Shown one piece after another: positions 26,734 through 49,413 of a DNA stretch of 64,000 nt. The stretch's first letter is position 1. Each line of letters starts with the position of its first letter. The translations under genes were made by a program, and so were the position numbers. The notes under the pieces were generated by a model. The model worked only from the letters and a program-made list of their open reading frames with translations. It was not told the DNA's origin and did no database searches. The stretch lies in the NCBI RefSeq assembly GCF_001677475.2, contig NZ_CP015229.1; one strand, given 5' to 3'. The stretch comes from Escherichia coli. Lineage in GTDB: Bacteria > Pseudomonadota > Gammaproteobacteria > Enterobacterales > Enterobacteriaceae.

Positions 26734-27156
26734 GTTACGTAGCCAGATCATTTTTTTACCAAAGCCCAGCGTGTTGTCGGTGAATTTGATTTCATCGAGC
26801 CGGATTTCCCACACCGGGGCCGACAGCATTCTGGCAACCGGAAAGCGACGGTTGTACGCCTTGCGTGCGAGGTCGCTTTCCTCACCTTCCAGTCTGCGGA
26901 TCTCGCCTTTAAATTGCACGCCGCGAATTAACGCTACCGTTTTCGGCTGACCGTTTACCGTTCCGGCAACTGCCGCCTGCGGCCCACTCATCTGCGCGTG
27001 GCGCGTTTTTTCTTCCGTCAAAATGTAGAAGGCAACTTTCTGCGCATCAAAAAGATAAAAGGCATTGGCGCACCACAATTCCCCTTCCTGCTGCACACAC
27101 CAGGAGACAACATGTTGTTTTGCCAGCCAACGGCTGATGGCGGTGAGTGTTTCCAT
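26713..27156 (-). CDS. yhbP: UPF0306 protein, 147 aa
   Basis: 147 aa ORF, convergent with and overlapping the yhbO 3' end. Confidence 0.85.
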
Positions 27157-27206
27157 AGCGGTTCTCTTTTATACTGTGGGCCTGACCTTAACATGCGACG
27201 CAGACG

Positions 27207-27509
27207 ATGACACCCTGGTTTCTTTACTTGATCCGTACCGCCGATAATAAGCTTTATACCGGGATCACCACAGATGTCGAACGCCGCTATCAGCAGCACC
27301 AAAGCGGCAAAGGGGCGAAAGCACTGCGCGGGAAAGGAGAACTAACGCTGGCGTTTTCCGCGCCAGTGGGCGATCGTTCGCTGGCGTTACGGGCAGAATA
27401 TCGCGTTAAGCAACTGACCAAACGGCAAAAAGAACGTCTGGTAGCGGAAGGCGCAGGGTTTGCAGAACTGTTGAGCAGCCTACAAACCCCAAAGATTAAA
27501 AGCGATTGA
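27207..27509 (+). CDS. yhbQ: GIY-YIG domain protein, 100 aa
   Basis: 100 aa; [22 protein letters not shown] is a GIY-YIG signature. Confidence 0.88.
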
Positions 27510-45453: not shown

Positions 45454-45530
<77 letters not shown>

Positions 45531-45790
45531 CCTGAAACGTGGCAAATTCTACTCGTTTTGGGTAAAAAATGCAAATACTGCTGGGATTTGGTGTACCGAG
45601 ACGGGACGTAAAATCTGTAGGCATTATAGTGATCCATGCCACATTTTGTCAACGTTTATTGCTAATCACGTGAATGAATATCCAGTTCACTTTCATTTGT
45701 TGAATACTTTTGCCTTCTCCTGCTCTCCCTTAAGCGCATTATTTTACAAAAAACACACTAAACTCTTCCTGTCTCCGATAAAAGATGATT

Positions 45791-45826
45791 AAATGAAAAC
45801 TCATTTATTTTGCATAAAAATTCAGT
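45791..45826 (+). promoter_or_regulatory. Tandem ARG-box-like palindromes (ArgR operator) upstream of argG
   Basis: aaatgaaaactcattt (palindromic) and ttgcataaaaattcag, close to the TGAAT(A/T)4ATTCA consensus as I recall it, about 55 bp upstream of the argG ATG. Confidence 0.5.
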
Positions 45827-45862
45827 GAGAGCGGAAATCCAGGCTCATCATCAGTTAATTAA

Positions 45863-47221
<1,359 letters not shown>

Positions 47222-47228
47222 TTCGACA

Positions 47229-48854
47229 TCAACCCTGCCCTTCAGGGGTGGGGTTACCTTGCTTATCCTCTGTAAACTCCTTTCTGAGCATCACATAATC
47301 GAAAACATCATGGTTTGCATCCACAACCCGTGAGTCTCCTTTATAGTGTGCAATCACTTCCTCAAGCGTTTGTGGCTGTTCCGGCTTTGTTACCCCCATC
47401 CACGCATTAATAAGGTAATTATTGTAAGCTGTCGAAAAGATGTTGTTTTCCGTTGTGCGATCCACGCCATCCCCAAGAACGGGGCTATACCAGATAAACA
47501 TCGGGACATGATATGCCTGCTGGCTAGCCTCCCTGCCTCCATGAAAATAGACGTTCTTCTTCGTAGGGTCACGTTCCAGGCCGTGGTCGGCAAAATACAT
47601 GACCGAGGCGCGGCGATCTTTTAATAATTCAAAAACCTGACCTAGCAAACTATCTGTGTAATGAATGGAGTTGTCATAGCAGGCATCCTGATCGTCCTGC
47701 GGTTGAAACACGGCGCTGGATTGCGGATAGGCGCTACAAGCCGGTTCATGGCTTCCATTTAAATGAAGAACAATCAGTTTCTTTTGCTGCATATTTTGCT
47801 GTAACGCTTGCGATAAATGCGGCAACAACAATTCATCAAATCCTCTGACATAGACTGTTTCCATGGCGCGCATGGCGATACTGGTAACTGCTGTACCATT
47901 CTGCCGAAAAGCGGATTGCGAGCTTAGCCAGAAAGTCTGAAATCCTGCCTGATTAGCCATATTAATAATGTTGTCGGGGTAATTATGAATGTCATGGCTC
48001 AAAACGGAATCAGCAGTTAAAGAAAGGGGAACCGACAGCGCAGTGTAAGGTGCACCGCTTATTGCTTGATTAAACAGTTTGATCTGTTTTCTTTGTGCTT
48101 CGACTTGCGGTGTCGTAGAGCGTGTATATCCATACAAAGACATATTGTCGACACGTACAGACTCCCCCACAATCAACACGTAGGTATCAATACCTGTATC
48201 CCTGACTGATAATTGAAAATACGGCACCGTGTTTGCAATTGAGAGTAATCTTTGATGCTCTTTCGCTGCTAAAGCAAAATAATTGAGATTGAAAAACGGA
48301 GTATAGGTAGCAAATCGCGACGCTAGTATATATGGACTGAATGCTTTTTTATTTTTTGCATCTTTATAAGCAAATTGACAAGCAGAAAATAAACTGCCCG
48401 AAATGACAATCAGCAATAATATTCCTGTCACTTTTTTTGTCGGTAAGGAAACATCATATTTTATTATTACTGCCAAAAAAAGAAGGGATAAAAAAGCAAA
48501 AGCACATAGATAAGGGATATACATCCCCAGCATTTTGACAACTTCATCCGGATCACTCTGGAGCACACTAATCGCAAATCCATCATTGAAAGTTGTACCA
48601 AAGGTACACCATGAATAGAGGCTAATACTCATGTCTGCCGCAGTCAGTAACACAAATGGTGCGGCAACAAGCAGGCGAAGCGGAAGGGGTGATATACGTT
48701 TAACAACCAGGATGGTCAGGACGAAGAACAGCAATCGCTGAACCATATGCGCTCCGGAAGAGGCGACTAAGTTCGTAATACCAAAAACAATAACACAAAG
48801 ATACAACAACCAATGAGATTTAAAACTTCTAGCAAATTTGTTGAATACTGTCAT
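47229..48854 (-). CDS. yhbX: Inner-membrane sulfatase-fold protein of the phosphoethanolamine-transferase (EptA-like) family, 541 aa
   Basis: Start at internal ATG (MTVFNKFARSFKSHWLLYL); N-terminal transmembrane segments and C-terminal sulfatase-like domain. Confidence 0.88.
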   Translation of the reverse strand: MTVFNKFARSFKSHWLLYLCVIVFGITNLVASSGAHMVQRLLFFVLTILVVKRISPLPLRLLVAAPFVLLTAADMSISLYSWCTFGTTFNDGFAISVLQSDPDEVVKMLGMYIPYLCAFAFLSLLFLAVIIKYDVSLPTKKVTGILLLIVISGSLFSACQFAYKDAKNKKAFSPYILASRFATYTPFFNLNYFALAAKEHQRLLSIANTVPYFQLSVRDTGIDTYVLIVGESVRVDNMSLYGYTRSTTPQVEAQRKQIKLFNQAISGAPYTALSVPLSLTADSVLSHDIHNYPDNIINMANQAGFQTFWLSSQSAFRQNGTAVTSIAMRAMETVYVRGFDELLLPHLSQALQQNMQQKKLIVLHLNGSHEPACSAYPQSSAVFQPQDDQDACYDNSIHYTDSLLGQVFELLKDRRASVMYFADHGLERDPTKKNVYFHGGREASQQAYHVPMFIWYSPVLGDGVDRTTENNIFSTAYNNYLINAWMGVTKPEQPQTLEEVIAHYKGDSRVVDANHDVFDYVMLRKEFTEDKQGNPTPEGQG

Positions 48855-49276
48855 CCAGAAATCCAAGTTCACAACCAATATAAACAATTATCAACAATGT
48901 TCAATTTTATATCAGACATGTTTTTCAACTCTGATCCATATCAGAACGAAACACTGTTAGTTTTTTCTTTTTAAATGATGCGGCCATTGCGTTCTCAGTA
49001 ATTAAATAACATTATCAATGCGTCTCTAAACATTACGCAGAACGTAGCCATCAGTAGTTATACTGACAGGAGCAGGATGGTTTATCGAGAAGTAAACATA
49101 TCCGTATTCGTACCGGAACTGGAGTTGACACAATAAAGTGCCAATTATGTCAGCAGAAGGGAAAAATTTATAACTAAGGCGTACCGGCACCATCGTTTCA
49201 AGGTACCAGCTACGAGTAAAGCAACTGGACGAGATACAGATACCTGACTACCATTCCTCAGACCAGGACCAAAACG

Positions 49277-49299
49277 AAAAAAGACGCTTTTCAGCGTCT
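49277..49299 (-). terminator. Intrinsic terminator of the secG-leuU transcript
   Basis: Minus strand: agacgctgaaaagcgtct followed by tttttt, 14 nt after the leuU 3' end. Confidence 0.8.
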
Positions 49300-49312
49300 C
49301 TTTTCTGGAATT

Positions 49313-49399
49313 TGGTACCGAGGACGGGACTTGAACCCGTAAGCCCTATTGGGCACTACCACCTCAAGGTAGCGTGTCTACCAATTCCACCACCTCGGC
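49313..49399 (-). tRNA. leuU: tRNA-Leu, 87 nt, long variable arm
   Basis: Reverse complement reads GCCGAGGTGGTGGAATTGGTAGACACGCTACCTTGAGGTGGTAGTGCCCAATAGGGCTTACGGGTTCAAGTCCCGTCCTCGGTACCA. Confidence 0.93.
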
Positions 49400-49413
49400 A
49401 CGGATACTACTTT

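Follow-up and report, generated by a model that had tools for sequence, protein, structure and literature searches.

Between yhbX and leuU, Escherichia coli carries an AT-rich spacer, and within it, on the plus strand, a Shine-Dalgarno-like (SD-like) AGGAG stands just before an ATG that opens a frame of 19 codons. The question raised by this locus is whether the frame is a small-protein gene that annotation has passed over, or an open frame that arose in the spacer by accident. We examined it in a window of 64,000 nucleotides of E. coli DNA (assembly GCF_001677475.2, contig NZ_CP015229.1), and all coordinates below refer to this window unless stated otherwise. Our answer, to which we give a probability of about 87%, is that the frame opened by chance in the AT-rich DNA upstream of yhbX, which is young and lineage-specific. 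The elements needed to follow the argument are these:

47229-48854, minus strand: yhbX, encoding a putative phosphoethanolamine transferase of 541 aa (K-12 b3173; Pfam Sulfatase PF00884).
49068-49072, plus strand: SD-like AGGAG, read from the sequence, with CAGG (49073-49076) as the 4-nt gap to the ATG.
49077-49136, plus strand: ORF encoding MVYREVNISVFVPELELTQ, followed by TAA, read from the sequence and judged to be a probable chance ORF.
49276-49305, minus strand: intrinsic terminator of secG-leuU, found by terminator scan and also as an inverted repeat.
49313-49399, minus strand: leuU, tRNA-Leu(GAG) (ARAGORN; Rfam tRNA, 52.8 bits; K-12 b3174).

When the sequence was re-read, the positions that the original prediction had given for the SD-like motif, the gap, the start codon and the stop codon proved exact, as did its translation. 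The frame runs without interruption through 19 sense codons from the ATG at 49077 to the TAA at 49134-49136, and its product is the peptide listed above. It lies on the strand opposite to both neighbours, as had been described, yhbX and leuU both being on the minus strand. The spacer between these genes measures 458 bp, or about 421 bp when counted to the leuU terminator, and has a G+C content of 38%. Its longest ORFs reach 55 aa on the minus strand and 53 aa on the plus strand, which agrees with the earlier statement that some 420 bp here are free of any ORF of 60 aa or more. In K-12 MG1655 the ORF is identical (NC_000913.3:3321836-3321895); coordinates in that genome equal the window coordinates plus 3,272,759, an offset shown by matching the positions of yhbX and leuU. 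The K-12 annotation (NC_000913.3) has no feature between the two genes, and among the matches listed, none of the PGAP genomes has the spacer ORF annotated. An AGGAG followed by an ATG would in principle make a competent initiation site. Its spacing is short, as the original prediction had itself remarked, with 4 nt between the motif and the ATG; for initiation in E. coli, such a gap after AGGAG is reportedly shorter than optimal.

The first line of evidence concerns how readily such a pattern arises by accident. In dinucleotide shuffles of the spacer, an ATG ORF of at least 19 codons led by an SD appeared in 2.4% of the trials when AGGAG and GGAGG were the only motifs accepted, in 6.6% when four SD pentamers were allowed and in 18% when GTG and TTG starts were admitted too, and these rates stand for one spacer, uncorrected for the many spacers that a reader scans. 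The real window holds nine SD-led ORFs of 19-60 codons, and AGGAG or GGAGG precedes four of them. The duplex of the AGGAG with the 3' end of the 16S rRNA was calculated as -6.6 kcal/mol, a value equalled or bettered at 7.3% of the 2,049 ATGs in the window. The codon-usage log-odds of the ORF was -0.69, a value that ranks within the lowest 5.7% of genuine coding stretches of 19 codons in this window and in the top 12.8% of off-frame stretches (above 87% of them). Because the score is low for coding DNA and high for off-frame DNA, it is uninformative and leans, if anything, to the non-coding side. The combination of SD and ATG is not beyond chance expectation, and the locus may serve as a worked example of how often short frames of this kind arise by chance in the AT-rich spacers of bacteria. 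The other three ATG ORFs of the window that are led by AGGAG or GGAGG, with the motif 3-11 nt upstream, are found at 7529-7669 (plus), 27112-27210 (plus) and 408-494 (minus).

The decisive evidence on the ORF is the history of the locus. We aligned 45500-49900 with the corresponding DNA of Salmonella, Citrobacter, E. ruysiae and an alternative E. coli allele. Homology ended at 47222/47223, at the argG stop codon, and resumed at 49270-49277, at the leuU terminator. What lies between these breaks is a single unit:

47223-49270, no strand assigned: lineage-specific cassette of 2,048 bp, comprising yhbX and its 416-bp upstream spacer, delimited by the homology breaks.

With its low G+C content and sharp boundaries, the cassette looks horizontally acquired. 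Other lineages, those of other genera being reached through SecG homologues and the contigs that carry them, have different content between argG and leuU:

Salmonella and Citrobacter: nothing, the two genes standing about 150 bp apart.
E. ruysiae: sialate-esterase, NanM-like and KdgM-like genes.
Klebsiella pneumoniae: a 133-aa gene of unknown function, yfaZ and a cNMP/HTH regulator.
One unassigned assembly: a DUF1963 gene.
E. coli, 248 of 5,426 complete genomes: the spacer is absent, its place in strain Ec40743 being taken by a 317-aa HTH gene.

The spacer is present in the other 5,178 of the complete E. coli genomes and is thus absent from about 5% of the species. A blastn search with the spacer and yhbX gave no match in any of the loci just listed. 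The slot between argG and leuU has sharp bounds and a cargo that differs among Enterobacteriaceae, and yhbX with its upstream DNA is one such cargo. We picture the 416-bp region and yhbX as a 2-kb cassette that occupies a hypervariable slot in most E. coli. The ORF in itself matters little, and the slot may be the more useful result of the two.

The only other species in which a syntenic yhbX homologue was found is E. fergusonii (GCA_027275105.1), where the gene order is glmM-secG-leuU-yhbX-argG. This homologue (locus L044, 2141-4096) is 69% identical to E. coli yhbX in amino acids and 71% in DNA, and the leuU-terminator segment beside it is 98% identical to that of E. coli. For sister species the divergence of yhbX seems high, which suggests that related cassettes were acquired separately or that the gene has evolved very fast. 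The leuU-yhbX spacer of E. fergusonii is 273 nt long, as against 458 nt in E. coli; it could not be aligned significantly with that of E. coli, and none of its short ORFs is related to our peptide, so that it offers no counterpart of the ORF. As the cassette is absent from E. ruysiae and the other genera examined and the E. fergusonii spacer has no such frame, the frame is not conserved outside E. coli. Conservation of the frame, whose absence the original prediction had named as one of two refuting outcomes, was accordingly not found in other species, nor did the ORF bear a mark of purifying selection. Whether the DNA is present at all in a sister species can settle calls of this kind where variation within the species has no power. 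It was also observed that some database entries labelled E. coli carry a YhbX protein of the fergusonii type.

A protein search with YhbX was dominated by E. coli entries of 99-100% identity. Plasmid pRHB40-C01_2 (CP057032.1; L042, 1712-3373) encodes a phosphoethanolamine transferase that is 65% identical to YhbX in amino acids, and the cluster of this paralogue at 90% identity comprises 2,955 member sequences, the named members that were read all being from E. coli. The region upstream of the plasmid paralogue is unrelated to the chromosomal spacer. The spacer had no match among phages; among plasmids, its matches were confined to chromosomes deposited as plasmids and to one paralogue, the latter within the coding region.

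Variation within E. coli was studied in 20 full-length spacers from complete genomes, representing 15 haplotypes. The ORF had two SNPs among these haplotypes, both nonsynonymous (E5G at 49090 and L15M at 49119) with no synonymous one, and two SNPs provide almost zero statistical power in either direction. Their density (2 per 60 nt) could not be distinguished from that of the spacer (27 per 414 nt). The ATG, the stop codon and the open frame were intact in all 20 sequences; however, substitutions are so few that neutrality predicts the same, and the intact frame carries no weight. The central spacer (48958-49153) was poorer in SNPs than the part next to leuU. The SD reads AGGGG, with a G at 49071, in a B2-like allele that accounts for 4 of the 15 haplotypes and 7 of the 20 sequences.

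In the larger set of genomes, the 101 nt at 49050-49150 were found at an identity of at least 99% in 4,281 genomes, at 95-99% in 775 and at 90-95% in 120. The 95-99% band fits the B2-like allele with AGGGG. The 90-95% band is explained by an in-frame deletion of 6 nt (49103-49108) between CGTA repeats, shared by about 120 of the complete genomes. A larger deletion of 111 bp (49107-49217), flanked by short CGTA/GTA repeats, takes out codons 11-19 of the ORF in isolate F829, together with a sigma-32-like -35 element that is described below. In one Logan assembly, a 1-nt deletion shifts the frame at about codon 13, which may be an assembly error. As far as these sequences tell, the plus-strand frame bears no mark of selection.

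A chance ORF of this kind would be without function and would be expressed at a low level or not at all. The signals that bear on expression include two predicted features:

49075-49104, plus strand: predicted local RNA hairpin pairing the AUG (GGAUGGUUUAU...GUAAACAUAUCC), seen in the MFE fold as well as the centroid fold.
48877-48915, minus strand: two overlapping sigma-70-like promoter matches (consensus scan, 9/12 each), just upstream of the yhbX start.

The consensus scan of 48700-49450 returned no sigma-70-like promoter on the plus strand, and scans of this type overlook weak promoters, of which AT-rich DNA has many. The two matches at 48877-48915 are the only promoter-like sites in the spacer, and their number is not above that expected from shuffled sequence. 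A TATACT at 49059-49064, noticed by eye, is without a -35 element, and a transcript starting from it would begin inside the SD. Judged by the signals of the consensus scan, the strand of the ORF has no promoter-like site that would cover it. The region from -30 to +33 of the ORF has a predicted folding energy of -16.5 kcal/mol, compared with -8.1 for yhbX and -9.8 for secG. The leuU terminator hairpin doubles as a weak terminator-like site on the plus strand (49282-49299).

Of the other explanations, the one that survives best is that the frame is translated and still non-functional, ribosomes initiating whenever pervasive transcription exposes the SD and the AUG, with a product that is not selected. 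We regard this as unlikely. The minimal requirements for initiation are present at the site, and the frame shows no sign of selection. Pervasive translation of non-conserved short ORFs has been described in E. coli and M. tuberculosis (Stringer, 10.1101/2021.07.02.450978; Smith, PMC9094748), and our ORF is like the ORFs concerned in being short, restricted to one species, devoid of a coding signature and equipped with minimal initiation signals. That class is defined by ribosome profiling, and the 19-codon ORF would belong to it if ribosomes were observed on it. Against translation stand the lack of a plus-strand match in the consensus scan and the predicted structure of the start region, which would lower initiation. 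The spacer is, moreover, AT-rich acquired DNA, and DNA of this kind is typically silenced by H-NS.

We prefer the reading in which a frame that happens to be open and a fortuitous SD-like pentamer would have come together within the AT-rich 416-bp region upstream of yhbX. Stray plus-strand transcripts may then yield some low-level translation of the ORF, as they do for many non-functional short ORFs, and no function would be implied by it. If the spacer DNA serves any purpose, it is most likely that of a promoter or regulatory region for yhbX on the minus strand. The caveat of the original prediction, a possible accident within the promoter region of yhbX, is favoured by the chance rate, the locus history and the polymorphism. 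Taken as a whole, that prediction holds in its description and in this caveat; the unannotated small-protein gene that it implied is unsupported.

It is also conceivable that the functional element lies on the other strand or is non-coding, in the form of an antisense ORF of 55 aa, a long yhbX leader transcribed from a distal sigma-32 promoter, or a small RNA; we consider this very unlikely. The candidates on the minus strand, with the longest plus-strand ORF of the spacer, are as follows:

49197-49203, minus strand: CTTGAAA, an exact match to the sigma-32 -35 consensus directed towards yhbX, read by eye, with a poor -10.
49026-49193, minus strand: 55-aa ORF antisense to the 19-codon ORF, from the ORF list, with no SD upstream and found in E. 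coli only.
48813-48974, plus strand: 53-aa ORF overlapping the yhbX start, from the ORF list.

An in-vitro SELEX experiment with RNAP-RpoH placed a peak in the yhbX-leuU spacer (Shimada 2017, PMC5493296), and the minus-strand CTTGAAA (49203-49197) could belong to such a site. However, the intensity of the peak was 3.2 against a cut-off of 3.0, and with fragments of 200-300 bp it resolves neither the position more finely nor the strand. The -10 match behind CTTGAAA is poor. If real, this promoter would cross the ORF in antisense as part of a long yhbX leader. Position 49202, inside the motif, is polymorphic (G/A) in E. coli. The 55-aa and 53-aa ORFs are named, as hypothetical proteins, only in a few old draft assemblies of E. 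coli; the naming speaks to some extent for the 55-aa ORF, but this ORF is without an SD, is restricted to E. coli and is shortened by the F829 deletion. As to an RNA, a search of 48855-49270 against Rfam 15 gave no match even at E <= 1, and only the tRNA (leuU) passes. A structured plus-strand RNA was rejected on its fold z-scores, which were -0.22 for 101 nt (not significant) and -1.75 for 273 nt (including the terminator hairpin). A 461-aa member of the cluster of the antisense ORF was discarded as an unrelated protein that had been clustered wrongly.

A 13-nt inverted repeat, 85% complementary and with 29 nt between its arms, is present at 48990-49002 and 49032-49044 (CGTTCTCAGTAAT / ATTACGCAGAACG). 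It sits 140-190 nt upstream of yhbX, where the spacer is least variable, and might bind a protein or form a hairpin in a leader.

A further proposal, that of a genuine and very young 19-aa microprotein gene that is specific to E. coli and possibly of de novo origin, divergent from yhbX and ending at the bidirectional leuU hairpin, is in our judgement highly improbable. Equally improbable is the version in which it was born within the acquired yhbX cassette and is expressed without consensus promoters, for instance after relief of H-NS silencing. Were the newborn gene real, the AGGAG/AGGGG, L15M and two-codon deletion alleles would represent the earliest stage of the birth or loss of a gene. 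An SD-like motif and an ATG are present, the frame is intact in the 20 full-length spacers, and the common 6-nt deletion keeps the frame. The lower number of SNPs in the central spacer and the weak plus-strand terminator-like site at 49282-49299 would fit as well. On the other side, the consensus scan found no plus-strand promoter, the AUG is placed within a predicted hairpin, a common allele carries a changed SD, both SNPs are nonsynonymous, and deletions found in nature take away the C-terminal half or shift it. Neither E. fergusonii nor the other genera examined have a counterpart. The ORF is missing from the K-12 reference annotation, which carries the validated small proteins. Many validated small proteins of E. 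coli are single transmembrane helices; the peptide encoded here is not, being insufficiently hydrophobic. Nor did it show similarity to any protein or protein family, as assessed through the read-through translation of 70 aa because 19 aa is below the minimum length of the protein search tools tried: a phmmer search of 1.84 billion representative proteins with a limit of E <= 0.001 gave no match.

Comparison with known small ORFs points in the same direction. Validated E. coli proteins of less than 50 aa (Weaver, bioRxiv 10.1101/511675; VanOrsdel, PMC6001520) are likewise short and intergenic, begin at an SD-like motif with an ATG and fall below the size limit of gene callers. These proteins, however, were recognized by initiating-ribosome peaks and epitope-tagged products, and in contrast to them our ORF is unannotated in K-12, has no promoter match and is not conserved beyond E. 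coli. It also resembles the smORFs of Enterobacteriaceae described by Fesenko (PMC11188072) in its intergenic position, its length within 15-70 codons and its AT-rich spacer; those families are defined by conservation and selection, whereas the ORF is without homologues outside E. coli and without variation biased to synonymous sites. Leader peptides and uORFs are similarly very short and adjoin regulatory regions, but such an ORF precedes the gene that it controls on the same strand. The 19-codon ORF is opposite to yhbX, and downstream of it on the plus strand there is only the antisense of leuU and secG; with yhbX, leuU and secG all on the minus strand, it is no leader peptide or uORF.

The least plausible proposal is that the frame is what decay has left of the 5' end of a donor gene divergent from yhbX. 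It could appeal to the horizontally acquired look of the cassette and to the continuation of frame 1 for 36 more codons past the TAA, with a single stop in 49077-49244. By our calculation, however, DNA of this base composition would show one stop in 56 codons in about 12% of cases, and the regions upstream of the E. fergusonii homologue and of the plasmid paralogue bear no resemblance to the spacer. We rejected the proposal on the empty phmmer search of the read-through.

The ORF was mentioned in no paper in the literature searched. In the small-ORF supplementary tables of PIRT-seq and in a portion of those of Fesenko 2024 (PMC11188072), there was no entry for the peptide, its coordinates, yhbX or leuU. 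Other papers that touch yhbX (a sigma-54 bypass screen, a prediction of GalR sites, ExcludonFinder and EASY-edit) concern the gene or its argG side rather than the spacer.

Some minor observations on the cassette and its surroundings may be added. Peptide patterns of YhbX were run against a contig collection that evidently does not give access to E. coli, and none of the 55 matching stretches was a confirmed relative. The leuU-terminator pattern had one match in the same collection, the 1,485-bp contig JAIJJM010000762.1 ('MAG: Collinsella sp.'); since this contig is 100% identical to the argG-HTH-leuU region of E. coli Ec40743, the bin is almost certainly contaminated with E. coli DNA. Among the nine E. 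coli strains sampled first, two (FDAARGOS_1256 and O145:NM FWSEC0002) have yhbX annotated as a frameshifted pseudogene, which suggests that the gene is dispensable. In K-12, a cat cassette inserted into the leuU-yhbX spacer has served as a neutral marker with linkage to ftsH (Fivenson 2023, bioRxiv 10.1101/2023.02.03.527047). One of the primer homology arms begins within the last four codons of the ORF, so that the insertion lies about 30 nt past the stop codon and leaves the ORF intact.
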